64,000 bases of DNA from Rhodothermales bacterium (GCA_965216255.1 OZ244148.1:838623-902622); one strand, 5' to 3'. Positions 21,052 to 44,688 are shown, numbered from the stretch's first letter. A program made the numbers and translations. Notes: generated from the sequence alone by a model not told the origin.

Positions 21052-22560
<1,509 letters not shown>

Positions 22561-22782: not shown

Positions 22783-22855
22783 GCCAATGTAGCTCAGTTG
22801 GTAGAGCAGCTCACTCGTAATGAGCAGGTCAGCGGTTCGAGTCCGCTCATTGGCT
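22783..22855 (+). tRNA. tRNA-Thr(CGT)
   Basis: Acceptor GCCAATG/CATTGGC, D-arm GCTC-AGTTGGTA-GAGC, anticodon stem GCTCA/TGAGC with loop CTCGTAA, T-arm AGCGG-TTCGAGT-CCGCT. CCA is not encoded. Confidence 0.97.
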
Positions 22856-23039
22856 CCTCCATTTACGGCCGATAAATAGCGCTGCACGGCCATGCCTGGC
22901 CTTACTTCTTTCCTAAGGCGGACGTGGCGGGCCGCTAGAGACCGTTTCGTCTGGTGTGGCCCCGACCATAATCCGCGCCGACGCGGCACCGGAGTTGAGC
23001 CACAAGGCCTTGGTGACGGCCGAGGCCACCCGCCTCCTA

Positions 23040-23683
23040 ACCAGCGGCTGAGAAAGATAATGGCTCGGTACCGCGTGGCGGTCAATACATCGGCGAGCCC
23101 GTCCTTGTTAAGATCAGCTACCGCCAGATCGATTCCGACGCCGCTGTGGTTGTTTATGAGTTCCGCTACATACTGCACCCTCTTACCATTGCGGACGAGC
23201 CGGAACCAGTAGATAACCGGAGGCCCGAAGGGGTCGGGATCCGATGGATTTCCCCCGAAATGCGCCCACCAGCGCTTCCCTGCTACGATGTCCTTTAAGC
23301 CGTCACCGTCGGCTAGCGCCAACGCGTGCAGCGCCGCGAACACCACACCCTCATTCGGATGCACGAAATCGTCCATGATCGTGTGCTGTTCGAACGAGAT
23401 ACTGCCGTCCGGTGCACGCTTTTGCTCAAACCAGGCAAGGCCGAAACCGTGCGCTTCGAGACTGGTGACGACATCATTCAATCCGTCACCGTTCACATCG
23501 TAGGCAAAGGTCCTGCCTCCACCGGGTCCGCCTTGCTGCGCTCCTCAGCGTCCTAAGGATTCCGCGTGGTAAATCCACGGCGGGCCGGTTAGGACCTCCG
23601 GTTGTTCCCACCAGCCGTAGGCCTGTATGATATCCATTCGAGAGTCGCCGCTGATGTGACCCGCTCCGAGACCGTGGGCAAAC
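23040..23683 (-). pseudogene. C-terminal half of a split FG-GAP/VCBS-repeat (plus DUF1080-like) gene
   Basis: Reads FAHGLGAGHISGDSRMDIIQAYGWWEQP..*..AYDVNGDGLNDVVTSLEAHGFGLAWFEQ..DLNKDGLADVL, with an in-frame TGA at 23545-23547. The 3' limit is approximate. Confidence 0.8.
23677..23683. repeat. Left target-site duplication GGCAAAC of the IS66-bounded block
   Basis: Identical to 40256-40262; abuts GTAAGCG. Confidence 0.85.
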
Positions 23684-24049
23684 GTAAGCGTCCGGTGAAG
23701 TACAGGTCAGCGGCAGCTACAGGTGTGCCGATGGGTACAGGACGGCTGGAAGGCGGAGAGCAGGTGGGCTTGCCGGATCCGGCACACTCGGTGCTTGGCA
23801 GCTATGCCGCCTTGTTTTTGTCAGCTTGCCGTGCCTTCTGCCAATGATGAGGCAAGAGGTCAGCTACGCGCCTGGCCGGATGCGTCGGGATGCGCTCGAA
23901 CACGTCCGTGAGCCACTCCTGGGGATTGACACCGTGTAGCTTGCACGTGCCAAGTAGTGCTTGTACGAAAATACTTTAAATCTTCAATAAACAATCGGTT
24001 ATATCTTGCAATTGGCGGTGAATCTGAGGGACGTATAGCCGATTTGGGC

Positions 24050-25453
24050 CGCCAATTAAAGTCCGAAGTGCAACAACTGTAGACAAGGTGGTATGCCCCT
24101 GAGTAGAGACAGAAGATAGCACAGGCAACGCGGAAAACGAGCTTCTTCGGAGGGCGGGCGGAGCCCGACCGGAGAAGAAGCTGCTTGCTGGCCGAAGAAA
24201 TTCGCGCTCCTTGACCTTTGAGGCAGCCAATGCCGACGGGCGAGCATGGCTCTTCCCCTGCGTGTAGGCACGCATGATGTCACCCGAACATGGTACAATG
24301 GTCTATGGGTCTTTCTGGCGACGACCCGACTCAGACCATGGACGCGGAGGCTGCCACGCCCTCTAGTGCAGGAAGGAAAACCTCCGCCGGCGTGCGGTAG
24401 GCCAAGCATCGGCGCGGACGGTTGTTCAATTGCGCTTGCACCCGCCTCACCGCTGCCGGTTCAACCGTGTGAAAGTTGGTTGCCTTCGGGAAGTACTCTC
24501 GCACCAGGCCGTTGGTGTGCTCGTTCAGACCACGCTCCCAGGAGTGGTATGGCCTCGCAAAGTAAAACGATGCGGAAAGCGCGCTGGCGATCTGCCGATG
24601 ATGAGCGAACTCCTTGCCATTGTCCGCCGTGATAGTAAGTACCCGGTCCTTTACCGGACTGAGACAACCTATGATCGCATGGCGGACCCCGATCGCAGCC
24701 TTTGACGCAACGTGCTCAAGAAACGTGAATTTCGAGGCGCGATCGACCATGGATACCAGTGCTCCCTGTTGTTTCGCCCCGATGATCGTATCAACCTCCC
24801 AGTCGCCTATCCGCGTCTTCTGCTCTACAATGGGATCACGTTCGCTGATGTCTACACGGTGCGGTATCAGGCCGCGCCCAGCACCGCTCTTGTTACGCCT
24901 GTTGTACCGCTTACCACGGCGACGCAGCAGCTTGTACAACGATCCGCCAGCCGCTCGGTCCACCCAGCTATGCCTGTAAATCCATGTGGTGCTTACCGAA
25001 ACGACACCATCACGACGAAGTCGACCCGAGACCTGCTCTGGACTCCAGTGCAGGGCGAGCTTCTCACGCACAAGAGACCACATCGCTTCAGTCATCTTCC
25101 GTGGACGCAACGATGCCTTCCTCCGCCGCCCGCTGGCCAAGCGGGTAGCCTGTTGATACCGGTAGCCCCTACCTCCGCTGTTGCGATGCAACTCCCGGCT
25201 GATCGTCGATGGCGAGCGACCCAACTGTCGCGCAATCTCGCGCAGCGAATCAGCTCGCTTCCTCAATGCGTGAATCTGGCACCTTTCCTCATAGGAAAGA
25301 TGATGATAGCCCGTCGCCATTTGATACCCTCCAATGATGTCTTAACGGAGCGTACCGGCATCATCTCGCTCACATGTAATCAGCGTGATGAATACGCGCT
25401 TGCTAGCGCGCTGTCATCCAAATCAAGTGTTGCACTTCGTTGTTAAATGGGCC
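24050..25453 (-). mobile_element. IS30-family element
   Basis: 26-bp imperfect IRs ending CGAAGTGCAACA; 3-bp TSD GGC at 24047-24049 and 25454-25456. Confidence 0.88.
24331..25320 (-). CDS. IS30-family transposase
   Basis: YHHLSYEER HTH, GRSPSTISREL, GDWEVDTIIG, TITADNGKEFA and PYHSWERGLNEHTNGLVREYFPK. Confidence 0.95.
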   Translation of the reverse strand: MATGYHHLSYEERCQIHALRKRADSLREIARQLGRSPSTISRELHRNSGGRGYRYQQATRLASGRRRKASLRPRKMTEAMWSLVREKLALHWSPEQVSGRLRRDGVVSVSTTWIYRHSWVDRAAGGSLYKLLRRRGKRYNRRNKSGAGRGLIPHRVDISERDPIVEQKTRIGDWEVDTIIGAKQQGALVSMVDRASKFTFLEHVASKAAIGVRHAIIGCLSPVKDRVLTITADNGKEFAHHRQIASALSASFYFARPYHSWERGLNEHTNGLVREYFPKATNFHTVEPAAVRRVQAQLNNRPRRCLAYRTPAEVFLPALEGVAASASMV

Positions 25454-25496
25454 GGCGTTTAAGAGCGCAAAACAGCTCACATTCGCCAGGGAAACC

Positions 25497-26930
25497 ATGC
25501 GCAAGATTGTCCCAGAGTGCCGTGCACTCGATAGTACGCCGATGGAGGAGATTGCCATAGACCCGAGAATGCGCGACGACATGAGTGCGGTGCTCAAGGG
25601 TCTGCAGTGCGTCTACTGCACGGCGGAATCTCGTGCGGCCTTGTTCACGATTCTGGAGGCGCACTTTCAGCCGGGTAAACGTAAAGATGTCGGACGCCCG
25701 GGCATGGATCTATGGCGCGTCATCGTGTTTGCGATAGTCAAGCAGTGCCTGGATCTGGACTACGATGCTTTGTTGTACCGGGCCAACAACGATCTCTTGC
25801 TGCGGGAGCTCTTGGGGCACGGAGACGCCGGGTTTGACGAGGTGAAGTACAGCAGACAGCGGCTGGTGGACAACGTGCAGCTTTTGACGCCGAAGCTGGT
25901 CCAGAAGGTGACCCAATTGATAGTGCAGACGGGGCACAAGGTGGCTGGAAAAAAGTCTGGGGCCGCGCTAGCCGGTCGCTGCGATTCCAGGGTGGTTAAG
26001 ACGCATGTGCACTATCCCACCGATGTGGGTCTGTGCTGGGATGCGGTTCGTGGTCTAATACGTGTGAGTGCACGCTCGGCTGCGGCATTCGCTCTTCCGG
26101 GCTGGCGCAAGCATGCGTATCGCACGCGGAAGGTATACCAGGCCTTCAGCCGGGTGCGGACGGCCCCGCGCTACCGGCAGAATCCGAAAGGAGTGCAGGC
26201 GTACTTGCGCCAGTGCACACAGACTGCAGCACGTGCCCGTACGCTGTTAAATGCCTTGGCCACGGCGCAGAAATCGGAGGCGGCGCGAGCGGATATCGCG
26301 TATTACTTGCACTATGTGGACTTGTTGGTGGATCAAATCCGGCGTCGCATCCTCTTGGGCAAGCAGATTCCACATGCGCGGAAAGTGTTTTCCATCCACA
26401 AGCCACATACGCGTTGGATCAGCAAAGGCAAGGCGGGCGTGCTGGTGGAGCTGGGCCTTCCGGTCGCACTGGTAGAAGATGAGCACCGGTTCATTTTGGC
26501 TTATCACATCCTGTGGGACACATCAGATGTAGAGGTGGCGGTACCGATCATTGACGCGGTGCAGGCGGCTTTTCCAGAGTTTAATGCGTGCAGTTTTGAC
26601 CGGGGCTTTCATAGCTTGAAGAATCGAGAAGCATTGGATGCTCGGCTGGCGCTCAATGCGCTTCCGAAGAAGGGCAAGCTTTCTCTGACGGAGCGTGCGC
26701 GGGAGCACGCGCCTGCGTTCAAGGCAGCGCGGCGGCAGCACCCGGCCGTCGAGTCGTGTCTGGCCAATTTCGGACTTCGGGGCGGTGCGCTGGTGCGGGA
26801 GAAGAGTCCGGAGAACTTCGCGCTGATGGTGAGCCTGTCGGTGTTGGCGGTCGACGTGCACCGGCTGGGTTGCCTGGTGCGCGCCCAGGAACGGGCACGA
26901 ATGAGGCGTCGGCGAAAGCGCGCGGCGTAG
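25497..26930 (+). CDS. ISNCY-family transposase
   Basis: GRPGMDLWRVIVF, RCDSRVVKTHVHYPTDVGL, VFSIHKPHTRWISKGKAG..VELG, SFDRGF and HPAVES. Confidence 0.85.
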   Translation: MRKIVPECRALDSTPMEEIAIDPRMRDDMSAVLKGLQCVYCTAESRAALFTILEAHFQPGKRKDVGRPGMDLWRVIVFAIVKQCLDLDYDALLYRANNDLLLRELLGHGDAGFDEVKYSRQRLVDNVQLLTPKLVQKVTQLIVQTGHKVAGKKSGAALAGRCDSRVVKTHVHYPTDVGLCWDAVRGLIRVSARSAAAFALPGWRKHAYRTRKVYQAFSRVRTAPRYRQNPKGVQAYLRQCTQTAARARTLLNALATAQKSEAARADIAYYLHYVDLLVDQIRRRILLGKQIPHARKVFSIHKPHTRWISKGKAGVLVELGLPVALVEDEHRFILAYHILWDTSDVEVAVPIIDAVQAAFPEFNACSFDRGFHSLKNREALDARLALNALPKKGKLSLTERAREHAPAFKAARRQHPAVESCLANFGLRGGALVREKSPENFALMVSLSVLAVDVHRLGCLVRAQERARMRRRRKRAA

Positions 26931-28485
26931 GCCCGCTACCACCTCGTAGAAAGGTCCCAATCGCAGTCCCCAAGGGACACGTATGCCCTCCCGATAGGAA
27001 CACAACGCCCTTCGAGTCGCAAACTGTCCGTGCGCGCACGCAAGAGACGCCAGCATGGCCGAAACACTCGAAGCGGACCGTCAACGAACTCAAAAAACAA
27101 CCGTGCCTGTGCATTCGAGGCCGAAAAAAGAGAGTATTCGGTCAATCACCAAGTAGCGAATAGACCACGGCTGCCCGCTGGGCCGCATCATGTGATCCCG
27201 CGAACAGGTAATTCTTGCGGCCGATAACCAACGGCCGCAGGGCATTTTCAATGAGGTTATTGTCCAGCTCCACGCGGCCCTCATCCAGGTATCGGGTCAG
27301 CCTTTTCCAAAGGCCGAGCGTATAGTTGATCGCCTGGCCCCAAGGACTCTTGGGCAACCCCCCGTTCGCCTCCAGCCAGGGCTTCAGCGCTTCCAGTACA
27401 GGCCGGGCCTCTTCCTGACGTACCTCGCGCCGACGATCCGCACTGGCTCCCTCCTCTCGCAGCCTGCGCTCTATGGCGTAGAGTCGCCTGATCTTTGTCA
27501 ACACGTGCTCGGCCTTCTCCGGTTCGTAGCTACGACAGTCGTAGAACTTGCGACGGGCATGCGCCATGCATCCGTAGACCGTCATAGACGGATGCGCATC
27601 GAAGACGTTGTAGGCCACATACCCGTCCGTCTGCAACGCTCCCGCATACCCACCCAAGAACGCCACCGGACCTGCACGGGCACGGCTCTTGCGATACTCC
27701 ATCACAAACAGCTTCTGCTCCGGAGTGTGGTACGCCCAGTAAAAACCCCGATGGGTCTTGCCCTTCTTCTTTCGATCCTGGACCTGGATACGTGTCTCAT
27801 CCGCCTGCAGATACCCGCTTAAGAGCGCCTCCTGCTTGAGTGCATCATACAGCGGCCCAAGGTGCCACGCTGACTGCGCTATCCAGCCTCCCAGCGTGGA
27901 CTTGGCAATTTCAATGCCTTCCCGCCGGAAACGCTGCTGCTGCCGGTACAGGGGCAAGTGGTCACAGTACTTGTTAACCACCACATCGGCCAACAATCCC
28001 GGTCCGGCCATGCCCTTGTCCACCAGCCGCGGAGGCAACTCGGCGATGATGACGCCGCTGTCCTCATCGGTCGGGTCCACATACTTGGGACGATGAATCT
28101 CGACCACCTTTATCATGCTGGGCACGCTCTCCAGGTACTGCGTCTTCTCCATGCCGATGCAAATGAGACCTGTCGTGTCCTCTTCAGGCTGGATTACGAT
28201 CGTCTCGCGGGGCAGGTGATCCGGCAGATCCTCGAAGTCCGGACGCCGCTTGGCCTTGCGCCGCTTCCGCTTCGGCTGATCCGTCTCGGGCTCGGGCGGC
28301 AGGGGCACCTCGACCTCCATGTCGTCAAACAAGAGGCCCTGCTGCGCCTCCGGCCCCAGTACATACCTTTCGCTCCTGGAGCCAAAGAGCAGGCGGAGGG
28401 CTTCAGCCAACTGTTTGTCCTTGCTCTCCAATTTCGCCTGCAGCCGGCTTATCTCTTCGCTCTGCTGATTGTTCTCCTCGGACAG

Positions 28486-30420
28486 GTAGAGTCGACGGGC
28501 GGCGCGTTACTCCCATTAGGAGCACGTTTCCGCCCGCCGCTCATCAAACCGGACGTGCAGAATTACCGCATCCGGCTTTCAGACAAGATCATGTTTTCGC
28601 CCACGGAAGGCCCTTGGTCGTTGGCTCAAGGCATATCAAGCCATACTTCTTGTATAGCTCTTCGTGTGGGAAGCGCGCCCACCCCCCCGGACTGAACCTT
28701 GTGCTTGCGACAGAGCCACTGGCGAATCCGCTTCTTCATGTGTGCATCTATGCCTGCATAGGCGGGATTGACTTGTCCAAGTCGGAAGTAGTTGGCCCAT
28801 CCGGTCGATAACCAGTTAAGGCGTGTTACCATCTCCTCTATGGACAGCAGTCCGTGCCTTGCCGCCGTTTGCTCACTGATCCTGCGGCATATGCTCTGGA
28901 CACTCTTCTTGCTCGGGCGAGTCCCTATATAGGATCCTCTGCCGCCCGGACGAAAGTTGCGCCCAATCCGGTACCCAAGGAACTCAAACGGTTCTTCGGG
29001 GCACCGGACGCATCGGGTCTTCCTTGCGTTGACCGGGAGTTTCAGCCGTTGCATTATGGTCTCCACCGCTTCCAGCATCGCTGTACCATCGGCCTTTCCG
29101 AGTACCACAAAATCATCGGCGTAGTTCACGATCGACGCTTGGAAGCGCCGGGCATAGCCCAGCAGCTTCCAGGCAAGGAGAAAACGGCGCATGTAGATGT
29201 TGCTCAGCAAGGGAGAGATTGGCGCGCCTTGCGGCGTACCCTTTCCTTCCTTCCGAGCCCGGTTCGTCAGGCGTTTGCCTGCCTTACCGTCATCTTCCAC
29301 TACCGGCATCACCAGCCATGACTTGATGAGTTCGAGCATCCGACCATCGCTGATACGACGCGCCAGAGACTTCATCATCTTGTCATGCGGTATCTCACCA
29401 AAGTAGTTCGACAGGTCTGCATCAACCACTTCCCGACAGCCCGTATTTACGAGCCTGTGGACGCGATTGACCGCTTCCTGTGCGCCACGTCCCTTCCGAT
29501 AGGCATATTGCTCCTCTTGTAAATCCGCTTCAAAGATCGGCCCCAGCACCAGCATTGCCGATGTCTGCGCGACCCTGTCACGAATACAGGGAATGCCTAA
29601 CGGTCGGAACTTGCCTGGCTGCTTCTTCGGGATCAGTACCTGACGTACCGCACGCGGTTTGTACGTACCCTCCCTTAGATCCCGCGCCAGTTCCCCCAAC
29701 CATCGATTTATGCCGTGCGCTTCAATGTCTCGAAACGTCTCTCCATCCACACCGGCACTGCCGCCGTTACGGCGTACTTGTTGCCAGGCTGCGAACAAGA
29801 AATCCTTCCTCCACACTTTGTCACACAATGCATGGAAGCGACGCTTGGGGTCTTCCTTCGCTTTGACATGTAATACGCGCTGGAGGTCCCGAACCGATTC
29901 TGATCCTGTTAGACCTGCGTCAGTAACCATTGCCTTTCCCCCTTTGCGTATTGCTCTTGAATGAGGGTCCCTTTCCTCGACGAGCATTACCCCGCGTCAC
30001 AGGTACTACGGACCCATCCGCCACCCTGACGGCCCAATCTGTCCCTTGCGGGAAATCGGTTGGCTTACGTGTGCCTCCGGCAGGGCTTCCCGTGTTGCTA
30101 CTTTTCCCATCTTGCATGCATGCCAGTGCCACTACCCCGGCGGAAGTAATCTGGTGCTTGTGTCGTTCTCTTCCCAGACTACCGGCGGCCTTCCCCTTAC
30201 CAACGGAGGGTCGGCTTCCGCATTGCATGTTTCGAGGCCTGCTCGGCATTCACTACGCGTTCCGGCCTGCATGCTCGCTGAATCGCCTAAGCGACCCTTT
30301 ACCAAAGTGCTTCAGCTCATGTTGTTACCTCCATAAACCGCTTTGGCCGCTACTAGCTGGAGCGACAGTTACTAGGTGGGATTCGCACCCACTAGGGAAA
30401 AGCGCCTTATCACGGCGCAC
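28486..30420 (-). ncRNA. Group II intron (1935 nt), same sense as tnpC
   Basis: 5' end GTGCG at 30420. Domain V GAAAGCCGGATGCGGTAATTCTGCACGTCCGGTTTGATGAG; 3' end ...CGACTCTAC. Removal restores the tnpC frame ...QQNAS|LSEE.... Confidence 0.95.
28626..29930 (-). CDS. ltrA: Group II intron reverse transcriptase/maturase (no En domain); apparent +1 frameshift near the C-terminus
   Basis: GGSAGVDG, IPKKQPGKFRPLGIPCIRDRVAQ, GTPQGAPISPLLSNIY, YADD and FLGY motifs. Confidence 0.93.
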   Translation of the reverse strand: MVTDAGLTGSESVRDLQRVLHVKAKEDPKRRFHALCDKVWRKDFLFAAWQQVRRNGGSAGVDGETFRDIEAHGINRWLGELARDLREGTYKPRAVRQVLIPKKQPGKFRPLGIPCIRDRVAQTSAMLVLGPIFEADLQEEQYAYRKGRGAQEAVNRVHRLVNTGCREVVDADLSNYFGEIPHDKMMKSLARRISDGRMLELIKSWLVMPVVEDDGKAGKRLTNRARKEGKGTPQGAPISPLLSNIYMRRFLLAWKLLGYARRFQASIVNYADDFVVLGKADGTAMLEAVETIMQRLKLPVNARKTRCVRCPEEPFEFLGYRIGRNFRPGGRGSYIGTRPSKKSVQSICRRISEQTAARHGLLSIEEMVTRLNWLSTGWANYFRLGQVNPAYAGIDAHMKKRIRQWLCRKHKVQSGGVGALPTRRAIQEVWLDMP

Positions 30421-30573
30421 GCTGGCGTTCTGCTGAAGCACCGCGGCAAGCTGCGCACGGAAGGTCTCAACATCCGCAGAAGAGAGGGAGGAATGTGCTT
30501 CGGGCTGCATGACTGTTCAACAACGCCTGCACATGTATTGTTCCCCGTTTCCACATACTATCTATCCCGATTT

Positions 30574-30909
30574 TCAGCTCTTAACCGCATACCGGCGCCG
30601 GTATTTTACGGACTTCAGCGACACTCCCTCCAGTAACATCACCATCTGCGTCCACGTCGGCATATCCTCTTTCGGCAGCTCAAACGTACCCGCTTCAAGC
30701 CTTTTGTAAAACAAGGCGAAGCCGTTTCGGTCCCACGAAAGCGCCTTCAGATGGCTCCGCCTCCTGTTGACGAACACAAAGACGTCCCCCGACATGGGAT
30801 CCCGCTTCATGCCGCTTTTCACCAAGGCGCACAGACCGTCAAAGCTCTTGCGCATGTCGGCCGGCGGCCGGTAAAAGAAATACCGGTGCGAAGGCCCCAG
30901 TCCGATCAT
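30574..30909 (-). CDS. tnpB: IS66 accessory protein TnpB
   Basis: DMRKSFDGL, GDVFVFVNRRR and WDRNGFALFYKRLEAGTF. Confidence 0.93.
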   Translation of the reverse strand: MIGLGPSHRYFFYRPPADMRKSFDGLCALVKSGMKRDPMSGDVFVFVNRRRSHLKALSWDRNGFALFYKRLEAGTFELPKEDMPTWTQMVMLLEGVSLKSVKYRRRYAVKS

Positions 30910-31205
30910 GACTGCACCAGCTGCGCCAGGTACGAGGCAGATACCGGCGCCAAGAGGCGCACGCGTATCCCGCCCGGGTACATGATCTCCACTTGCGCCT
31001 CTTCACCTGCCGTGGGTCTGCCAATCTCCACAAAGGCGCCGCTGTCCACTGCCGCAGCCTCCAGGCGATACTTCCGACGCCAGTAAAACAGCTGCCCATA
31101 CGAGATGCCGCGCTCGGCACAGAACGCTGCAGCGGTCTGGCTGCTTTCTTCATACTGTTCCATGAGCGGAAATATTTCTTCCGCCGTACGTCTGGGCTGT
31201 CTCAT
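30906..31205 (-). CDS. tnpA: IS66 accessory protein TnpA
   Basis: HTH FCAERGISYGQLFYWRRK and VEIMYPGGIRVR; ATGA overlap with tnpB. Confidence 0.88.
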   Translation of the reverse strand: MRQPRRTAEEIFPLMEQYEESSQTAAAFCAERGISYGQLFYWRRKYRLEAAAVDSGAFVEIGRPTAGEEAQVEIMYPGGIRVRLLAPVSASYLAQLVQS

Positions 31206-31612
31206 GCCATCCAGGCTTTGAGTCCTCGGGTCTATGAGTAATCTCCCGAGAAATCGTCACCTTATCCAGATGGGTTTCACCGCACGCTTACGATTTACCG
31301 TCCCGGTAACAAGGTCGCCTTACATGTAAGCACCCAGCCATTTCGCGAAGCGAAACCAGGGCGAATGCCCGTGAGGCGCGGCGAAAGGCCTTTGTCTTGT
31401 TTGCTGGTACCTGGTACTACCTGGTACCCATTCTCCCAAGTGACAGCAAGCGCGGCAAGAGTGCGATCACGCACAAATCCACATACGTCGGGCGGCGAGT
31501 GATACGTAGTCCGAATAAACCGGCGAGAGCACCCTCGCGAAGGCTCATTCAGGGTATCACACAAGTCTACAACCGACGCACCCCGCTGGCAGCGTTTGCA
31601 CTTTCGCTCGGC

Positions 31613-32206
31613 CTATATTGACTCAAGAGGCGTTGGTACTGACGGCGGATTCCATGACGGTGCCCGGCCATTGACAAGAAACCGGCCGATCCACGACACC
31701 CAACCGGCCGCATTGTAAAACTTGATACGTACTTCCTTAGGCGAGAATTGCGCCTCATCTGCGATCTGACTGCTGTGGGCCAATGCGTTCCTCTCCGCGA
31801 CAAGTGCCATAAAATCGAGGGAGGCACTTAACACATCTCCGTTTTCCTCGCTAGCCTCTTGAACTCTATCCCGGAAGTCCGTACCGAACTTCCTCAAGAA
31901 ACTGTTGACCTTGCCAGATTTCCAATCAAACAGCGTGTGGAATCTTCGATCAAGAACTCCCGCTCTTACGAACAATACAAGCGTCTCTTCACTAGAGGCT
32001 CTGTTCGCGAAGTCCAGCAAAGCACACACGGTCCGGCGCTCAAGCCAGTTCCCCGCCGCAAGAACCATCGCCTTCGCGAAAGCTGATCGTGTGCTGACTA
32101 AGATCGTAGCGTCGCACCCAGACATGTACTGTTCCAAGTCGACGAGGTTGTCCCACAAACGTTCGACGTACGATTCCGCTGGCTCGGGAGGCGCCTGCAT
32201 ATGCAC
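31613..32206 (-). CDS. HEPN-domain protein (RiboL-PSP/MAE_28990-like), putative RNase effector
   Basis: Rx4H motif RNALAH in a helical protein with AKAMVLAAGNWLE and RRFHTLFDW; starts immediately after the DUF262 gene stop. Confidence 0.75.
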   Translation of the reverse strand: MHMQAPPEPAESYVERLWDNLVDLEQYMSGCDATILVSTRSAFAKAMVLAAGNWLERRTVCALLDFANRASSEETLVLFVRAGVLDRRFHTLFDWKSGKVNSFLRKFGTDFRDRVQEASEENGDVLSASLDFMALVAERNALAHSSQIADEAQFSPKEVRIKFYNAAGWVSWIGRFLVNGRAPSWNPPSVPTPLESI

Positions 32207-33400
32207 TTATCTCCTGGACAGGACACTCTTCGCACTGCGAAGTCTGGCCTTGACTTTGTCCGGCTTGGTCGTACCTTCCTTCAACGCCTCTCGAAACGCT
32301 GGGTCTTGGTCAATAGCAGAAATGTCCTCAGCACGCAATGGCTTGACAGCCGCGGAGCCGTCAGCGAGTCGCGGCCGCAGTGCTTCCGCGAACACAACCT
32401 CGAAGAGGGGCACATTGAATCGGGAACGACCTTTCACCATGAAGACATCATCTGGCAAATCCGAACAGGCTTCCAAAAAATCAGAAAAGAGGCACTTCAC
32501 CTTATCGATCATATCAGGGCCGAAGTTGCGCTTGCAGTTTCCGGAAAACCGATTGAGAAACTTCACCATTGAGGGCCGATACTCATTGAGCCAGAGCAAA
32601 AGCGCGAATGAGCGGAGAAGAATTTCTACGTCCTTGAAGCGAACGTCAGGTTCTGGCCGGGGTAGCAGGCGGCGCCAACATGACCGCATGTTCAGCTTGA
32701 GCAGTAAGTCCAAGAACTCGGAGTTGTACAGACTCATCCTCAGTTCTTGAGCCGACAGATTTAAGCCCCCCGAGTTCAAACGGTTGAAAATTTCAAACAT
32801 CGAAGAGTGATCGTCTGTTGGCCTAACCTGCTTGATCACGACATTCCGTACGGTCCGAAGGTCCAGGGTTCGTTTCTCCTCCCCTAGTGTCGCGTACTTT
32901 TTCCCGTGGAACGGGCTTTGCGCGTTCGGTTCTCCGCCTAGTCCCTTTAGTGACAGCCGGAAATCAGAGAATAGGTCATCATTCTCGAGTATCGATTCAG
33001 CAAGTGAGCCACTTTCGTCGAACAGAGCCCTGATCTTGGCGCGCGCATTGCGATTTGGGAAACGCCCCTTAACAAAGTAATAGAGCGTCATGAGTCTCTG
33101 CTGACCATCAATCAGTAGTAGGGGATCTTTGTTGTGCTGGTAGAGAAACACTTGGGGAACGGGCAATCCGAGAAGTAGGGACTCAATTAGACGTGAGGAT
33201 CGAGCTAGATCCCAGACGAAGTTTCTCTGGAATCCAGGTATGCGAATAGAACCTGCGTCGATGAACGAGACGATGACAGCGACGTTGAAATCGTTAGGGA
33301 CTGCCGTGATGTCGTATTCGGGAATATAGCTGTCAGGCGCTGGTTCCTCCCCGTGGTCGCGCCATTCCTCTTCCGTGATTTCAGGATTTCTGCCAGCCAT
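32207..33400 (-). CDS. DUF262 (ParB-like/GmrSD N-terminal) domain protein
   Basis: IPGFQRNFVW, LIESLLLGLPVP, IDGQQRL and FNRLNSGG motifs. Confidence 0.9.
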   Translation of the reverse strand: MAGRNPEITEEEWRDHGEEPAPDSYIPEYDITAVPNDFNVAVIVSFIDAGSIRIPGFQRNFVWDLARSSRLIESLLLGLPVPQVFLYQHNKDPLLLIDGQQRLMTLYYFVKGRFPNRNARAKIRALFDESGSLAESILENDDLFSDFRLSLKGLGGEPNAQSPFHGKKYATLGEEKRTLDLRTVRNVVIKQVRPTDDHSSMFEIFNRLNSGGLNLSAQELRMSLYNSEFLDLLLKLNMRSCWRRLLPRPEPDVRFKDVEILLRSFALLLWLNEYRPSMVKFLNRFSGNCKRNFGPDMIDKVKCLFSDFLEACSDLPDDVFMVKGRSRFNVPLFEVVFAEALRPRLADGSAAVKPLRAEDISAIDQDPAFREALKEGTTKPDKVKARLRSAKSVLSRR

Positions 33401-33749
33401 CCCGAGGGTAGGTTTGTGAGAGCCGAAAGATAGTTACAGTATCTACCAGAAGCGAGTGTCGAGTGTTCCTGCAAGGGGGATGGCCGTGACGGTTGTTGCA
33501 GGCATGGATTGTGGGTTCTCGGTGAGCGCAACATACTGCCTCGTTTGGGAAAGGGGTGGATGGGCGTGCGGCGTGGGGCGCCGATCCCATCCACCCCTAC
33601 TCTTACTCCGCCGACAATAAACACCCCGACGACGACAACGACCTGCTTTCCGTCGTGCCCGCTGAATGGGCTGCGGGACGTGATAATAGGTTACGCCTGA
33701 ACGCAAGCCGATCTTGGCGCCACACCACCGTCTGCTAACTGGCCGGCAG

Positions 33750-34085
33750 TCACCGTCGATTCCGAAACCAGAGAAGGGTTCTCCTGATCACATACGTGAA
33801 CCAGAAAATGTAAAATAGGAAACTCAGGATTACCGTTAAAGCCACGTGCCAATCTTCTGTGTACAAGTAGTCGGCGAAGGATACCAGTAGCATGGGACCT
33901 ATGGTCAGCAGCAGAAACAGGACGATCCGCCAAGCTATCCCAATGGCAGCTGACACGCTCTGTGTTGGTGTTTCGGGCCTGTTCCCGGGTCTCTGTTTCC
34001 GGGAGGTTGGTGCGCCTTCGTCGTTTCCTTCAATAAGTCGCCATCTGGCGTCTTTGATATCCGGATTGCGCATGGGACGAGTCAT
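33750..34085 (-). CDS. Small 2-TM hypothetical membrane protein
   Basis: 111 aa from MTRPM with two clear hydrophobic segments (IGIAWRIVLFLLLTIGPMLLVSF; VALTVILSFLFYIFWFTYVI). Confidence 0.5.
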   Translation of the reverse strand: MTRPMRNPDIKDARWRLIEGNDEGAPTSRKQRPGNRPETPTQSVSAAIGIAWRIVLFLLLTIGPMLLVSFADYLYTEDWHVALTVILSFLFYIFWFTYVIRRTLLWFRNRR

Positions 34086-34607
34086 GGTCACATGATATGG
34101 CAGGCCTGTTAGACAGGTGACGAAACGCAAGGTTCTGCGTTACATAAGCGCTCATTATGTGAGAAACTGTCATATCTTGGGTCTGTAGAATGCCGCGGCG
34201 TATCTTTGTGGAGTACCCATCAATCGCCCTAGACGGGCATATCCGGACTACATCGTATGACAGATCCAACAGAATCCAACGTACACTCACTCCTTACCCG
34301 TGAGGAGGCACTCAGCACTCTGGATGATCTGGTGCGCAGCTCCGCCCGGCGCATGCTTCAGGCAGCGCTCGAGCGGGAAGCCGACGACTACGTGAAGGCC
34401 CATGCACACCTGCGGAATGAGAACGGCCACCGAATGGTCAAACGCAATGGCCACCATCCGCAGAGAGAAATCCTCACGGGTGCGGGCCCGCTAGCGATCC
34501 AGCGGCCCCATATCCGTAACCCTCGAACAGATCTTATAGTAGGACTGCTCCGGCTGGGCGAGCTACATTAGCTCGTTCACCACATTCACCCAAACCGGAA
34601 CAGCCTC

Positions 34608-35747
34608 ATGCAAAGATACACTCCAACATTCACTTCGGCCTCCTCGCTGGTTGTCGGCATGGACGTGCACAAGAAGACCATTGCGCTTTGCGTGTACGAC
34701 GACAGCACGGGCGAGGTAATTGACGAGCGGCAGTTGCCGCACGACATGCCGAGAATCCGCAAGTATGTGCAGAAGTTACAGAGGCGCTACGGCGAGGTTC
34801 GTTGCTGCTACGAAGCGTCGTCCTGCGGATTCGGCCTGCAGCGTGCGCTGCAGGTGCAGGGCGTGCACTGCGACGTGATCGCCCCCTCATCCATTCCGCG
34901 TCGACCGGGCGAGCGTATCAAGACTGATCGACGGGATGCGATGAAGCTGGCCACGTTGTATGCCAAAGGGCTGCTGACGCCGGTGTGCGTACCGGAAGAG
35001 GAGCAGGAAGCAGCCCGGTCCCTTTTGCGCTGCCGCGCTGACTTGGTGGAGTCTATCACGCGCACCAAGCAGCGGATCCTGTCTTTCATTCAGACCCGGG
35101 GCTTTCGGTACACCGGTGCCACAAACTGGACGAAGGCCCATTGGAAGTGGATTCGTGCCTTGCCGGCAAGGGCGGTGGACCAGGTCACGCTGCAGACGTA
35201 TCTGCACAAGCTGACGTATCTGGAGCAGGAAGTGCACAGACTGGAACAGCAACTGGCAGAGGAGGCCGAAAAGGACCGCTACAGAGAGCCCGTGGGGGTG
35301 CTGATGGCCTTCCGGGGCATAGGCTTTGTGACGGCCATGACGCTGGTGTGCGAATTGGGAGACATCCGTCGCTTCGCGCATCCGCGGCAGTTAATGGCGT
35401 ATCTCGGCCTGGTGCCGAGCGAGTACAGCTCGGGCGATCACACGCAGCGCGGCTCCATCACAAAGACGGGCAACACGCATGTTCGCAAGGCGCTGGTGTC
35501 AACGGCATGGAAGTATGCAGCCCAACCGCGGTGCAGTAAAGTGCTACGCGAACGGCAGCAGGGCGTCTCGGCCGAGGTCGTTCTACTGGCATGGAAGGCC
35601 CAGTGCCGGCTGTACAAGAGATTCCGCAAACTGAGTCAGACGAAGTCGCGATGCGTGGCCAACACGGCGGTGGCGCGTGAACTGGCGGGCTTTCTCTGGG
35701 AGGCGTTGCGTATGCACACGGGCTCGCCGTTGCCGAAGGCCGCCTGA
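34608..35747 (+). CDS. IS110/IS1111 DEDD recombinase (transposase)
   Basis: RuvC-like GMDVHK, CYEAS, KTDRRDA; Tnp domain RRFAHPRQLMAYLGLVPSEYSSG and GSITKTGN. Confidence 0.95.
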   Translation: MQRYTPTFTSASSLVVGMDVHKKTIALCVYDDSTGEVIDERQLPHDMPRIRKYVQKLQRRYGEVRCCYEASSCGFGLQRALQVQGVHCDVIAPSSIPRRPGERIKTDRRDAMKLATLYAKGLLTPVCVPEEEQEAARSLLRCRADLVESITRTKQRILSFIQTRGFRYTGATNWTKAHWKWIRALPARAVDQVTLQTYLHKLTYLEQEVHRLEQQLAEEAEKDRYREPVGVLMAFRGIGFVTAMTLVCELGDIRRFAHPRQLMAYLGLVPSEYSSGDHTQRGSITKTGNTHVRKALVSTAWKYAAQPRCSKVLRERQQGVSAEVVLLAWKAQCRLYKRFRKLSQTKSRCVANTAVARELAGFLWEALRMHTGSPLPKAA

Positions 35748-36018
35748 CTCGTATCTTGTAACCAAAGAGAAATGGCCTATGGAGAAGTGATCGGGCACGG
35801 TAAGGAGAACCCACGATATGCCCTTGCGATAGCCAGCTCTCTTGCTGGTGAGTGCGCGTCAACAGATAGTGGCAGCTCCCGTCGAAACCGAAATCATGCG
35901 TTATGGTCCTTCGGGGCTTAGCACGCGAATACCAGATTGATTAGCCGTCGAAGCCGCCCGGTCGCTTCTCCAGAGGTCAAGCCAAACACTCTTCATGTAA
36001 TCTTCACTTGACATAGTA
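35748..36018 (+). ncRNA. Predicted bridge RNA/seekRNA of the IS1111-type element
   Basis: Contains TATGCCCT (reverse complement of target AGGGCATA), AACAG (target left plus core) and ATACCAGAT (donor circle junction), with intervening hairpins. Transcript limits are unknown. Confidence 0.7.
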
Positions 36019-36343
36019 TCCTACTATACCAGGGCATACCTTCACCAGCGCCATACTGCCGCGCTATATGCGCCGCAGTCCGTCGATAGATGCACTCATT
36101 CCGGCTTTGTACCTGCGGGGAGTTTCGACCAACGACTTTCCTATGGCCCTGGAGGCCATACTCGGGCCGCAAGCTGGCAACCTATCGCCATCGTCGATCA
36201 GCCGACTCAAGGGGGCTTGGCTAGAGGAATACCGGCAATGGAACAAGCGGGACTTGACGGGCAAGCGGTATGTTTACCTCTGGGCTGACGGGCTGTACTT
36301 CAATGTCCGCATGGGAAACGAGCGCCCGTGTCTGCTGGTTATT

Positions 36344-37781
36344 CGGAAGTTCCCCCCAAAATCAAGGCGATACAGAGTGTTCTGCAGGTATTAATCTCGG
36401 CGTAAGTAGTGTATGAATAAGCAGTTGCAGATAAGTCCTGCGCCACATTCGTCCGTAATAGGTCCAAATTATGATTCCCATGTAATTGACTCTGTCTTCA
36501 TCCAGTCTTCACAGTTATTCCGGACTCATAGTTGACGTTATAACACCTATTTACCCATCTTTATATCTGCGGCTATTCCTAGATCATCTTTCTAATAAAG
36601 TACCCATGTATGTCGCCACCGTCCCCAACCGCGGTGCCCGCCCCACCTACCTCATCCGCCAAGGCAAACGCCATGGCCGCAAAGTCGTCAAAACCACCCT
36701 CGCCAATATCTCCAAACTCCCCGATGATATCATCGACTACATCCGCATCCTCCTGCGCGGGGGCATCGCCGTCGATAACCCACAGTACGCCTTCCAACAC
36801 TCCTTCCGCTTCACCAAAGGTATCCCCCATGGAAACGTCGCCGCCGTACTCGGCTGCCTCCGTGACCTGAAGCTCCACAGCATCATCGCAACCAAAGATT
36901 CCAAACAGCGACGCCTCGCCATCGCCCTTATCGCTGCCCGTATCCTTGATCCCAAAAGCAAACTCGCCACCAGCGCAGCCCTGCACCCGGACACCGCCAC
37001 CCATTCGCTCGGTACCGAACTCGGTCTCGAAAACATTGACGAGGACACCTCTACCAGACCATGGATTGGCTGCTGAAGCGCAAAAGCACCATCGAAGAGC
37101 GCCTCGCTCGCCAGCACCTCGAGGAGGGCTCTCTCGTCCTTTGCGATGTTACCTCCACTTACGTCGAAGGCGAAGCCCTCGAGCTGGCCGAGTATGGCTA
37201 CTCCCGGGACAAGAAAAAGGGCAAGAAACAGATCGTCTTCGGCCTACTCACCGGCAAAGACGGCTGCCCCGTGGCCGTGGAAGTCTTTGCAGGCAATACG
37301 GCCGATCCCAACACGCTGGCTCCGCAGATTGCCAAGATCCAGCAACAATTCGGCCTCCGGCGCATCGTGCTCGTAGGAGACCGCGGCCTGCTTACCGAGG
37401 CCCGCATACGCAAAGAGGTCAAACCCGCCAGGACTGGATATCCGCCCTCAGGAAGAGCGGCATCCGCAAAATAGTGGAAACGGAAGCCCTGCAACTGTCC
37501 CTGTTCGACGAACAAGGCTTCGCGGAGATCACCACCGCCGTCTACCCGGGGGAGCGGATCGTCCTGTGCCGCAACCCGCTACGGGCCAGGGCGTCGGCGT
37601 ATAACCGCGAAAGACGGCTGGCAAAGACCGAAGAGGCGCTGGAGAAGATCGTAGTGGCCACCCGGCGCGAGGTAATCCCCTGCGTAGCATGAAGGCGATC
37701 AGCTTTCGTGTAGGGAAGGTCATCGGCAAGTGGAAGATGGAAAAGCATTTTGATCTGGATATTAAGGAAGGCTTCTTTAGC
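36344..37781 (+). pseudogene. IS1634-family element remnant (transposase from 36606, at least 3 frameshifts, truncated by IS66)
   Basis: MYVATVPNRGARPTYLIRQGKR..TLANISKLP, LCDVTSTYVEG, YGYSRDKKKGKKQIVFGLL, VGDRGLLT and ERIVLCRNP. The left boundary is approximate. Confidence 0.85.
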
Positions 37782-37867
37782 GTAAGCGTGCGGTGAAACC
37801 CATCTGGATAAGGTGACGATTTCTCGGGAGATTACTCATAGCCCCGAGGACTCAAAGCCTGGATGGC

Positions 37868-38167
37868 ATGAGACAGCCCAGACGTACGGCGGAAGAAATG
37901 TTTCCGCTGGTGGAACAGTATGAAGAAAGCAGCCAGACCGCTGCAGCGTTCTGTGCCGAGCGCGGCATCTCGTATGGGCAGCTGTTTTACTGGCGTCGGA
38001 AGTATCGCCTGGAGGCTGCGGCAGTGGACAGCGGCGCCTTTGTGGAGATTGGCAGACCCACGGCAGGTGAAGAGGCGCAAGTGGAGATCATGTACCCGGG
38101 CGGGATACGCGTGCGCCTCTTGGCGCCGGTATCTGCCTCGTACCTGGCGCAGCTGGTGCAGTCATGA
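37868..38167 (+). CDS. tnpA: IS66 TnpA
   Basis: Near-identical to 30906-31205. Confidence 0.88.
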   Translation: MRQPRRTAEEMFPLVEQYEESSQTAAAFCAERGISYGQLFYWRRKYRLEAAAVDSGAFVEIGRPTAGEEAQVEIMYPGGIRVRLLAPVSASYLAQLVQS

Positions 38168-38511
38168 TCGGACTGGGGCCTTCGCACCGGTATTTCTTTT
38201 ACCGGCCGCCGGCCGACATGCGCAAGAGCTTTGACGGTCTGTGCGCCTTGGTGAAAAGCGGCATGAAGCGGGATCCCATGTCGGGGGACGTCTTTGTGTT
38301 CGTCAACAGGAGGCGGAGCCATCTGAAGGCGCTTTCGTGGGACCGAAACGGCTTCGCCTTGTTTTACAAAAGGCTTGAAGCGGGTACGTTTGAGCTGCCG
38401 AAAGAGGATATGCCGACGTGGACGCAGATGGTGATGTTACTGGAGGGAGTGTCGCTGAAGTCCGTAAAATACCGGCGCCGGTATGCGGTTAAGAGCCGGG
38501 AATCGGGATAA
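38164..38511 (+). CDS. tnpB: IS66 TnpB
   Basis: DMRKSFDGL motif. Confidence 0.93.
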   Translation: MIGLGPSHRYFFYRPPADMRKSFDGLCALVKSGMKRDPMSGDVFVFVNRRRSHLKALSWDRNGFALFYKRLEAGTFELPKEDMPTWTQMVMLLEGVSLKSVKYRRRYAVKSRESG

Positions 38512-38562
38512 ATAGTATGTGGAAACGTGGAACAATGCATGTGCAGACGTTGTTGAACAATC

Positions 38563-40137
38563 ATGCAGCCCGAAGCACATTCCTCCCTCTCTTCTGCGGA
38601 TGTTGAGACCTTCCCTGCGCAGCTTGCCGCGGTGCTTCAGCAGAACGCAAGCCAGTCCGAGGTAATCAATCAGCTGAGCGAGGAGATAAGCCGGCTGCAG
38701 GCGAAATTGGAGAGCAAGGACAAACAGCTGGCTGAAGCCCTCCGCCTGCTCTTTGGCTCCAGGAGCGAAAGGTATGTACTGGGGCCGGAGGCGCAGCAGG
38801 GCCTCTTGTTTGACGACATGGAGGTCGAGGTGCCCCTGCCGCCCGAGCCCGAGACGGATCAGCCGAAGCGGAAGCGGCGCAAGGCCAAGCGGCGTCCGGA
38901 CTTCGAGGATCTGCCGGATCACCTGCCCCGCGAGACGATCGTAATCCAGCCTGAAGAGGACACGACAGGTCTCATTTGCATCGGCATGGAGAAGACGCAG
39001 TACTTGGAGATCGTGCCCAGCATGATAAAGGTGGTCGAGATTCATCGCCCCAAGTACGTGGACCCGACCGATGAGGACAGCGGCGTCATCATCGCCGAGT
39101 TGCCTCCGCGGCTGGTGGACAAGGGCATGGCCGGACCGGGATTGTTGGCCGATGTGGTGGTTAACAAGTACTGTGACCACTTGCCCCTGTACCGGCAGCA
39201 GCAGCGTTTCCGGCGGGAAGGCATTGAAATTGCCCAGTCCACGCTGGGAGGCTGGATAGCGCAGTCGGCATGGCACCTTGGGCCGCTGTATGATGCACTC
39301 AAGCAGGAGGCGCTCTTAAGCGGGTATCTGCAGGCGGATGAGACGCGTATCCAGGTCCAGGATCGAAAGAAGAAGGGCAAGACCCATCGGGGTTTTTACT
39401 GGGCGTACCACACTCTGGAGCAGAAGCTGTTTGTGATGGAGTATCGCAAGAGCCGTGCCCGTGCAGGTCCGGTGGCGTTCTTGGGTGGGTATGCGGGAGC
39501 GTTGCAGACGGACGGGTATGTGGCCTACAACGTCTTCGAAGCGCATCCGTCTATGACGGTCTACGGATGCATGGCGCATGCTCGTCGCAAGTTCTACGAC
39601 TGTCGTAGCTACGAACCGGAGAAGGCCGAGCACGTGTTGACAAAGATCAGCCGACTCTACGCCATAGAGCGCAGGCTACAAGAGGAGGGTGCCAGTGCGG
39701 AACGTCGGCGCGAGGTACGTCAGGAAGAGGCCCGGCCTGTACTGGAAACGCTGAAGCCCTGGCTGGAGGCGAACGGGGGATTGCCCAAGAGCCCTTGGGG
39801 CCAGGCGACCAACTATACGCTCGGCCTTTGGAAAAGGCTGACCCGATACCTGGATGAGGGCCGCGTGGAGCTGGACAATAACCTCATTGAAAATGCCCTG
39901 CGGCCGTTGGTTATCGGCCGCAAGAATTACCTGTTCGCGGGATCACATGATGCGGCCCAGCGGGCAGCCGTGGTCTATTCGCTACTTGGCACGTGCAAGC
40001 TACACGGTGTTAATCCCCAGGAGTGGCTCACGGACGTGTTCGAGCGCATCCCGACGCATCCGGCCAGGCGCGTAGCTGACCTCTTGCCTCATCATTGGCA
40101 GAAGGCACGACAAGCTGACAAACACAAGGCGGCATAG
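38563..40137 (+). CDS. tnpC: IS66 TnpC DDE transposase, intact
   Basis: N-terminal coiled coil, LFGSRSER, KYCDHLPLYRQ, LQADET, LQTDGY, CMAHARRKF and DNNLIENALRPLVIGRKNYLFAGS. Confidence 0.96.
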   Translation: MQPEAHSSLSSADVETFPAQLAAVLQQNASQSEVINQLSEEISRLQAKLESKDKQLAEALRLLFGSRSERYVLGPEAQQGLLFDDMEVEVPLPPEPETDQPKRKRRKAKRRPDFEDLPDHLPRETIVIQPEEDTTGLICIGMEKTQYLEIVPSMIKVVEIHRPKYVDPTDEDSGVIIAELPPRLVDKGMAGPGLLADVVVNKYCDHLPLYRQQQRFRREGIEIAQSTLGGWIAQSAWHLGPLYDALKQEALLSGYLQADETRIQVQDRKKKGKTHRGFYWAYHTLEQKLFVMEYRKSRARAGPVAFLGGYAGALQTDGYVAYNVFEAHPSMTVYGCMAHARRKFYDCRSYEPEKAEHVLTKISRLYAIERRLQEEGASAERRREVRQEEARPVLETLKPWLEANGGLPKSPWGQATNYTLGLWKRLTRYLDEGRVELDNNLIENALRPLVIGRKNYLFAGSHDAAQRAAVVYSLLGTCKLHGVNPQEWLTDVFERIPTHPARRVADLLPHHWQKARQADKHKAA

Positions 40138-40255
40138 CTGCCAAGCGCCGAGTGTGCCGGATCCGGCAAGCCCACCTGCTCTCCGCCTTCCAGCCGTCCT
40201 GTACCCATCGGCACACCTGTAGCTGCCGCTGACCTGTACTTCACCGGACGCTTAC

Positions 40256-40262
40256 GGCAAAC
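40256..40262. repeat. Right target-site duplication GGCAAAC
   Basis: Identical to 23677-23683. Confidence 0.85.
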
Positions 40263-41380
40263 ATCGCCCCCCAAGGCCCCATCTCCGTAACCGCGTGAAA
40301 CATCCACTCCTTCGTCGGATTCGTCCCAGGATTCGCGTAGCCCCCATACCCACCGTCACCGTAGATATACTCCTCTATGCCATCGCCGTCGATGTCCTCC
40401 AGAAAGGCGGTCTTGTTGTTGACCGAGGGAATGACCATATACCGGGTCCAGCGACGCACCTCCCGGCCAGGGTTGATAAAGAGGAAGCCGGGGCGTCCTG
40501 GCTCGCCCGTATTCAAAAGGTCCGGATACCCGTCTCCCGTGACATCGCCTGCAGAGGATTGCAACGGATCGGGTTACGAGTCGGCCGAGAATGTGCGCGG
40601 CACAAAGATCTCCTGGCGCGCTACGAAGTTAGGTCCCAGGAAAATGTTCGGCCCCGCAATGACGTCCAAGTTGCCATCCAGACTCACGTCAGCCGCCGTC
40701 ACGGCTTCGCTGTAGAACATGGCCTCCAGCTGCTGCTTTCGGAACCGGAGTGCGGTTTCTTCCAGCGGTAGGGCATTCTTGCGATCCATCGGTTTGATTC
40801 CTATCTCCCGGAAGTGAATTTTCGTCCCGGGAGTCCCCTCAACAAACAGGCCAACCTCTCCGTTGTCTCTTGGCGCCACAGACCCTACACCCGCCTCCGG
40901 CGTCCCTGCTCCGTTGGGTCTCCAGCGGAGTGAGTTACCCACCATCTGGACCTAGACACGATTCCACCTTCCATTGACGTCCAGCGGCGTCAGATCGCGC
41001 CGGGCACCTATCTGGGCCGCCAAGAGCATGCCAAGGCCAGGGAATTCGCTTCGAAAATCCATCATTTCGGCAGGATAGGCAGAGGGGCTACTCTCAAGTC
41101 TTTCCCGTTCGGCGTCGTTATCCTCCGCACCAAGGGCAATCCTGTATGCCCCGGTCTCCTGTTCTCCGAATGAATACAGGACGCCGACCGCTTGTGCTGT
41201 GGAAGCAATTCCACAAAGCAGGATTCCAGGCCTGCAAGCCCCGCTGCACCGAAACGTTGCCGCAAGCGCCAAATCCTGATAATTGCCATCCACCAGCAGC
41301 AGGGCATTCCCGCCGGGACCGACCGTGCCGACGTAGGCGCGTTCGACAAGATTTAACCGAACTTTGGAAAGATCAGAAAT
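40256..41380 (-). pseudogene. N-terminal part of the split DUF1080-like/FG-GAP gene (5' end missing)
   Basis: One frame with in-frame stops at 40952 (TAG) and 40574 (TAA). FG-GAP motifs ADVSLDGNLDVIAGP, GDVTGDGYPDLL and EDIDGDGIEE; ends GPWGAMFA at the IS66 end. Confidence 0.75.
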
Positions 41381-41390
41381 GTAGCCACGT

Positions 41391-43556: not shown

Positions 43557-43622
43557 CCTCGTGCGGGGTAGCGTACAAGCTCTTCACTGCGTATCCTTCA
43601 ACGCACTTTCTACATTCGGCTG

Positions 43623-44675: not shown

Positions 44676-44688
44676 CGTTCGACCTACC

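Follow-up and report, generated by a model that had tools for sequence, protein, structure and literature searches.

In a 64,000-bp stretch of DNA from a Rhodothermales bacterium (GCA_965216255.1, OZ244148.1:838623-902622; the whole stretch is hereafter called the window, and positions are counted from its first letter), two copies of an insertion sequence (IS) of the IS66 family bracket 6490 bp of unrelated DNA in inverted orientation and separate the two parts of a gene encoding an FG-GAP/DUF1080 protein. The two copies and the DNA between them very probably constitute an IS66-based composite transposon that inserted as a whole into this gene. The element had been proposed in an initial annotation made from the sequence alone, and here we examined its architecture, its flanks, its target gene and its relatives.

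An inverted-repeat search returned three pairs of arms (23683-23957 with 39982-40256, 27149-28486 with 38652-39989, and 30421-31292 with 37781-38652), which tile a single 2474-bp sequence at 98-99% identity. The right copy (IS66-R, 37782-40255, plus strand) is uninterrupted over 2474 bp, and the left copy (IS66-L, 23684-31291, minus strand) lies in three pieces (23684-23957, 27157-28486 and 30421-31291), which reassemble into 2474 bp once the intervening insertions are removed. The tnpC gene reads toward 40255 in IS66-R, where it ends at 40137, and toward 23684 in IS66-L; both outer termini are therefore right ends (right inverted repeat, IRR) and both inner termini left ends (left inverted repeat, IRL). 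Exactly two matches to the 23-nt IRR terminus exist in the window, one at 23684-23706 on the plus strand and one at 40233-40255 on the minus strand, where 0 would be expected by chance. Coordinates, lengths and tnpC direction agree with the two outward-pointing copies of the initial annotation, and the 16.6 kb form a coherent whole, the nested repeats and the junctions agreeing with one another.

The unit is bordered on both sides by the 7-bp sequence GGCAAAC (23677-23683 and 40256-40262, read directly), repeated exactly, in direct orientation and flush with the termini GTAAGCG and CGCTTAC: the left flank ends in ...ACCGTGGGCAAAC before GTAAGCG, and the right flank starts with GGCAAACATCG after CGCTTAC. 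By our own calculation, a flush 7-mer match would arise by chance with a probability of 4^-7, or about 6e-5. The inner flanks, GATTTACC (31292-31299) and TCTTTAGC (37774-37781), are by contrast unlike each other and unlike the outer flanks. Because the outer flanks match and the inner ones do not, the duplication belongs to the whole unit and not to either IS copy. The exact outer repeat and the unrelated inner flanks had both been read correctly in the initial annotation.

The interrupted target can be rebuilt from the flanks. Joining them with one copy of the repeat (predicted empty site, ATGTTTGCCCACGGT) restores a single minus-strand frame, ...GPWGAMFA/HGLGAGHISGD... (the slash marks the junction), in a DUF1080 and FG-GAP protein whose two halves share the same orientation. 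With the joined protein as query, full-length homologues of 73-74% identity and 100% coverage were retrieved from a database, and the junction is gap-free in an alignment with 10 homologues, where it falls within a conserved GPWGAM(Y/F)AHGLG motif (consensus GPWGAMYAHGLGTGDINGD); the restored frame claimed in the initial annotation is thereby borne out. When the best homologue, P0001, was aligned by tblastn, its residues 65-424 matched 41335-40256 at 64% and its residues 423-637 matched 23682-23044 at 69%, with 0 frameshifts over about 1.7 kb. These matches delimit the N-terminal and central part of the gene (40256-41335, minus strand, two in-frame stops) and its C-terminal part (23044-23683, minus strand, with one in-frame stop and the left copy of the repeat). 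The corresponding values against the adjacent paralogue on the P0001 contig are 29% and 51%. Both halves being far closer to P0001 than to the paralogue, they represent one orthologous gene and not two paralogues, which removes one of the two circumstances that had been named as fatal to the proposal. Gene neighbours are conserved on both sides of the split gene: on the P0001 contig, a Peptidase_M32 gene lies downstream and a Pro_racemase gene upstream, and in the window the Peptidase_M32 gene is found downstream at 21052-22632 and the Pro_racemase gene upstream, just past an M1 peptidase gene.

The split gene is a decayed pseudogene and contains, as the initial annotation had not mentioned, three in-frame stops (TAG at 40952-40954, TAA at 40574-40576 and one near 23540 in the C-terminal half) at positions where homologues carry E, Y and W. 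A recoding of these codons was considered and rejected, since both TAG and TAA are found, at sites where homologues have E and Y. Decay is dominated by substitutions, with three nonsense changes and no frameshift in the gene, and 45 substitutions and no indel between the IS66 copies (98.2% identical over 2474 bp), a pattern that also speaks against a tendency of the assembly toward indel errors. Beyond the 3' end of the split gene, a tRNA-Thr (CGT) gene is located at 22783-22857, between it and the M32 carboxypeptidase gene, and a long reading frame crossing this tRNA gene (22636-23496) is spurious.

Since both target flanks adjoin an IRR and the repeat belongs to the unit as a whole, insertion would have proceeded via the two outward IRR ends. 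We propose that, at an earlier locus, two inverted IS66 copies with their IRL ends inward came to bracket a DUF262 gene, its HEPN-like neighbour and a group of defunct, nested ISs; one of the two copies would have inserted inside an IS1634 element. TnpA, TnpB and TnpC would then have paired the two outward IRR ends, the IRR being interchangeable with the IRL over the terminal 16 bp, and the segment would have moved into ...GTG/GGCAAAC/ATC..., leaving a short duplication from a staggered cut. An ISNCY element (itself hit by an IS30 element) and a group II intron would have disrupted the left copy, before or after the move, and the split gene would have gained its three nonsense codons. The content of the unit next to IS66-R is in line with such a history. 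An IS1634-family transposase remnant (36486-37781, plus strand; partial match to NCBIfam transpos_IS1634, model positions 11-91 and 233-309 of 483) stops at the IRL of IS66-R, at model position 309/483, and its missing part is not present beyond the far side of IS66-R, as had been noted initially. Remnants of IS1634 and IS256 that end at the inner IRL, with the rest absent beyond the IRR, are expected if the remainder was left at the donor site. The flush repeat owned by the unit, the rebuilt target and the orthology of the two halves thus support the view, already put forward in the initial annotation, that a 6.5 kb segment was captured elsewhere and moved as an IRR-IRR unit.

Homologous recombination, replicative inversion or cointegrate formation starting from a single IS66 insertion are events common in IS-rich genomes, and the lack of an own repeat at either copy would suit them, but recombination inside an IS keeps each terminus on its original flank, so that a second IRR-target junction cannot arise. 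Replicative inversion would have left one gene half internal and inverted, with inverted repeats, whereas the halves in the window are external and collinear and the repeats direct; a cointegrate would have given direct IS copies, whereas those of the window are inverted. Explanations of this kind are already contradicted by the sequence, and we hold their probability to be practically negligible, upholding the exclusion of replicative inversion and of homologous cointegration in the initial annotation. Two other routes were rejected on similar grounds: insertion of a translocatable unit would yield direct IS copies, and a fold-back duplication would yield inverted flanks.

The IRL is GTAAGCGTGCGGTGAA and the IRR GTAAGCGTCCGGTGAA, with 15/16 terminal bases identical, an identity at which discrimination between the two ends is not to be expected. 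The termini GTAAGCG...CGCTTAC follow the IS66 family, whose inverted repeats start with 5'-GTAAGCG. A longer terminus including the flanking C was rejected because the 8-bp repeat around a copy on a related contig (L121) is flush with GTAAGCG, which is preceded there by T. By hand tabulation, G is the base adjoining the IS in 15/20 ends, which indicates a preference in the choice of target and accounts for the seeming one-base extension of all four ends in the window.

Five related contigs, 95-99% identical to window DNA, were compared (L118-L121 and L123). Copies of the window IS are flanked by an exact 8-bp repeat on L121 (GTGCAAAT) and on L123 (GTTTCAGC) and by 8 bp with one mismatch on L118 (ATATCAGC versus ATATCAGA), and the copy on L119 has no flanking duplication. 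Duplications of 8 bp have likewise been published for ISPpa5a/ISPpa7 (PMC3281130), ISDge4 (PMC12898284), ISCro1/ISShdy2 (PMC13463583) and ISAlw32 (PMC12893667), in agreement with the 8 bp given as usual for IS66 in the initial annotation. An automated search for terminal repeats and duplications at 117 IS66-family loci returned mostly noise; the usable loci were L005, L012 and L037, with 8-bp repeats, L099, with 8 bp and one mismatch, and L006, with 7 bp. The 7-bp repeat at the unit is thus atypical for the window IS.

The difference in length rests on a single G in a run of G at the right junction, where the left side reads GTGGGCAAAC and the right side TTACGGCAAAC, so that the 7 bp could be either a true 7-bp stagger or an 8-bp duplication, GGGCAAAC, minus one G. 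Under the latter explanation, the composite event would be the same, with a duplication of normal length whose right-hand G was later lost by mutation, imprecise gap repair or a homopolymer error of the assembly. The 8-bp duplications of the same IS on L121, L123 and (with one mismatch) L118 speak for it; a single G added on the right would complete an 8-bp repeat, and GGGCAAAC would match the tendency of the flanks to start with G and end with C. The rebuilt target is identical under both readings, which agrees with a lost G as well, although it also means that the restoration of the frame does not discriminate between them. However, the window is free of indel noise, with 0 indels per 2474 bp between the IS copies and no frameshift over the pseudogene of about 1.7 kb, so that the loss of 1 bp exactly at the junction is improbable a priori. 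Furthermore, a flush 7-bp repeat (GACCGGC) also surrounds a single IS66-family copy on L006, in an unrelated long-read metagenome bin, where it borders a CC run. We consider the loss of a G quite possible while leaning slightly against it; if true, the 7 bp would be uninformative on mechanism. As a side observation, L006 (5137-7681) and L012 (5137-7681) carry one and the same distant IS66-family element in an Acidobacteriaceae bin, the former with a flush 7-bp repeat (GACCGGC) and the latter with an 8-bp repeat (AGACAAAC), a contrast that speaks for natural variation in repeat length.

It is also conceivable, if unlikely, that an IRR-IRR transpososome makes staggered cuts spaced one base closer than those of the normal IRL-IRR complex, in which case the 7 bp would be a real consequence of movement on two right ends. 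This stagger would then offer a first structural handle on how the little-studied machinery of TnpA, TnpB and TnpC measure the target, but evidence on mechanism from one base in a G-run is thin. A third way to account for the flanks invokes two simple IS66 insertions in opposite orientation one base apart, the first into the 8-bp target GGGCAAAC and the second into GGCAAACA, after which the 9 bp between them would have given way to the cargo in a double recombination involving another inverted IS66 pair. Worked through by hand, this scheme yields the outer flanks seen on either side while each duplication keeps its normal 8 bp; IS66 is abundant, and L119 shows recombination or rearrangement at the locus. 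It nevertheless calls for two hits one base apart and a double crossover with a donor that was already composite, and the second target departs from the G...C flank tendency. Far less parsimonious than one insertion, it strikes us as extremely unlikely.

Several observations weigh against a single insertion of the composite transposon. Its repeat measures 7 bp while the same IS makes 8 bp on L121 and L123. IS66-L and IS66-R differ at 1.8% of positions and are therefore not a recent duplicate pair. Neither a second copy of the unit nor an empty site was found, the best intact target homologue being 74% identical, and exact protein look-ups with the window TnpC, TnpB, DUF262 protein and IS110 transposase gave zero matches. 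Finally, on the closest relative retrieved, L119, which is collinear with window positions 41243-45332 at 97-98% identity, an IS66 copy (region 4311-7427 of L119) meets window position 41243 with its IRR. This point lies within the split FG-GAP gene, at a distance of 987 bp from the window junction, and the other flank (IRL) of the copy is an unrelated Sel1-like gene, without duplication. The locus has therefore undergone more than one rearrangement in the lineage. L119 offers no empty site and does not independently back the window junctions; it shows that both the locus and the IS are dynamic. It also carries an ISNCY copy near the equivalent of window positions 41526-41538, which is absent there in the window.

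A genome scan with TnpC found, as the nearest IS66 relatives among reference genomes, only copies of 74-80% identity in one Rhodothermales bin, both without flanking repeats; a metagenome scan with the same protein reached 44% identity at most, and a search with the left neighbour, the M32 carboxypeptidase, returned nothing above 71% identity. In the Rhodothermales bin, L001 (5226-7666 and 8633-9634) and L003 (5226-7671 and 12953-13451) each show a truncated inverted IRR-end fragment near the IS, which suggests frequent IS66-mediated rearrangement.

Neither outer junction of the unit was present on an independent contig among the relatives compared, a result that would also fit an assembly chimera, made either of simple IS66 insertions in opposite orientation in different cells or of a repeat-induced mis-join around IS-rich sequence. 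The IS is indeed very abundant (65 distinct TnpC sequences in one 90%-identity cluster), and the related assemblies, made up of long-read contigs of low coverage, show irregularities, for instance the additional tandem 273 bp on L123. A chimera would, however, require two independent opposite insertions at exactly the same base. With 45 differences between them and different nested insertions, the two copies should ordinarily be told apart by a long-read assembler, and the coherence of the 16.6 kb, in which nested repeats and junctions match, is difficult to reconcile with a mis-join. We regard such a chimera as very unlikely.

Returning to the composite transposon and its components, IS66-R carries the three genes of its family in open reading frames on the plus strand: tnpA (37868-38167; Pfam HTH_Tnp_1), tnpB (38164-38511; Pfam TnpB_IS66, 6.5e-33, of the IS66 Orf2 type) and tnpC (38563-40137; 524 amino acids; Pfam DDE_Tnp_IS66, 1.8e-90, with DDE_Tnp_IS66_C and LZ_Tnp_IS66). 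TnpC also matches NCBIfam transpos_IS66 (1.4e-121), exceeding the cut-off. With its frames intact, IS66-R may supply the transposition proteins. IS66-L has a stop within tnpB, and its tnpC is interrupted twice. Clustering at 90% identity places the window TnpC in a group of 65 distinct sequences, many of them located on one 5.41-Mb contig and others on low-coverage long-read metagenome contigs, and IS copies 95-98% identical to that of the window are present on related metagenome contigs. Judging from the size of this cluster and from the fresh 8-bp duplications on related contigs, the window IS66 appears to be an active IS.

The interruptions of IS66-L consist of three nested elements. The first is an ISNCY-family element (23958-27148, plus strand; about 1787 bp of its own DNA) with a transposase at 25440-26930 (NCBIfam transpos_ISNCY_1, 1.1e-109) and its own 8-bp repeat, CCAAGTAG (23950-23957 and 27149-27156), of which uninterrupted copies exist on L119 and L121. 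It is itself interrupted by an IS30-family element (24050-25453, minus strand; 1404 bp) with a transposase at 24331-25320 (NCBIfam transpos_IS30, 1.5e-84; Pfam HTH_38 and rve), and free-standing copies of the latter on L121 are 99.5% identical to it. The third is a group II intron (28487-30420, minus strand; 1934 bp), inserted in the sense orientation in the 5' part of the tnpC of IS66-L, with a reverse transcriptase/maturase gene at 28626-29987 (Pfam RVT_1 and GIIM) and a match to Rfam group-II-D1D4-4 at 30255-30394.

The group II intron is found at one and the same place in the IS66 sequence (near position 871, sense strand, toward the 5' end of tnpC) in IS66-L, L120 (8331-9945) and L123 (about 4711-6643). 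Either the IS66 would serve as a homing site for the intron, or an intron-bearing IS would have transposed. Compared with IS66-L, the intron-free IS66-R shows 7 differences within about 30 bp of the intron site (868-901). On L123, positions 3840-8532 comprise an intron-carrying IS66 whose final 273 bp are repeated once more in tandem behind it. The exact 8-bp repeat GTTTCAGC brackets the two together, and the extra piece begins at the IS position where ISNCY is inserted in IS66-L. The contig has a coverage of only 2x, and the extra piece may be an artefact.

The cargo (31292-37781; 6490 bp) extends from one inner IRL to the other, and its G+C content is 0.54-0.55 over 31-34 kb, where the putative defence genes lie, versus about 0.59 in the flanks. 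It contains a DUF262/GmrSD_N gene (32207-33400, minus strand; Pfam GmrSD_N, 1.2e-28), whose product matches the PADLOC models NsnA (1.6e-51), over almost its full length, and PD-T4-2_A (3.6e-37). Directly downstream is a HEPN-like gene (31613-32206, minus strand; 197 amino acids) with a match to Pfam PF18735 (RiboL-PSP) at 3.3e-4, below the curated cut-off, and zero matches among PADLOC models. The two genes form a candidate anti-phage defence pair. In comparison with the NsnA and PD-T4-2_A systems, the DUF262 protein resembles the model, whereas its partner has no PADLOC match. The remainder of the cargo is IS debris. Besides the IS1634 remnant, an IS256-family (Mutator) transposase remnant (34257-34571 and 36068-36394, plus strand; Pfam Transposase_mut) retains model positions 8-176 of 379 and is split by an IS110-family element (34529-36038, plus strand; about 1510 bp) with a transposase at 34608-35747 (NCBIfam transpos_IS110, 4.6e-79), the limits of which were set by a 97.4% identical copy on L120.

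Elsewhere in the window, imperfect 32-nt inverted repeats 4157 nt apart surround a segment of low G+C content (51988-56208). This segment holds an IS1595-type zinc-ribbon frame (52079-52498) and several unannotated frames, adjoins a radA-like gene (56189-57541), and may be a further transposon that carries passenger genes.

Tn5 (IS50), Tn10 (IS10) and Tn903 (IS903) are classical composite transposons in which the terminal IS copies are inverted. In such elements a single functional copy can provide the transposase even if its counterpart is defective; Tn5 uses the two outside ends of IS50, and Tn10 the two outside ends of IS10. The window unit resembles these elements in its inverted IS pair, its unrelated cargo, its two like outside ends and its single duplication around the whole unit. 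It differs from them in that its IS belongs to the IS66 family, its cargo is a candidate defence pair with IS debris and not a resistance gene, and its repeat is one base shorter than its IS normally makes. The initial annotation had stressed transposition on two right ends. Both outer ends are indeed IRRs, but this follows from the inverted arrangement of the IS copies and is not unusual: two like ends are standard for every composite with inverted IS copies and involve no novelty.

Three proteins, TnpA, TnpB and TnpC, are needed for transposition in the IS66 family, and the mechanism is poorly characterised. Like other members (IS66, IS679, ISCro1, ISPpa5a/ISPpa7 and ISAlw32), the window IS combines a tnpA-tnpB-tnpC organisation, a TnpC with a DDE_Tnp_IS66 domain and a length of about 2.5 kb; in contrast to single copies of these ISs, the mobile unit of the window is a pair with an IRR at each end and a repeat of 7 bp. 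A related published arrangement is a 10-kb segment of an IncC plasmid, similar to a compound transposon and bounded by ISCro1, each copy of which has its own 8-bp duplication, from which its authors infer independent insertions (PMC13463583). Both cases involve two IS66-family copies, about 10 kb apart for ISCro1. Unlike those of the plasmid, however, the window copies have no repeats of their own and only the unit is repeated, which is a signature of movement as a unit. In the literature searched, segments bounded by IS66-family copies were either asserted without evidence from a unit repeat or a target, or had turned out to be two separate insertions (PMC13463583).

The window thus offers a clear example from nature in which an IS66-family pair acts as a composite transposon, with a repeat owned by the unit and a rebuildable target. 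It leaves the understanding of composite transposons unchanged, the unit being an ordinary kind of mobile element whose only oddity, the 7-bp repeat, is also the only feature that might bear on mechanism. For the biology of this IS-saturated, Rhodothermales-like genome, it indicates that host DNA of a few kilobases, here likely including an anti-phage pair, can be made mobile by IS66.

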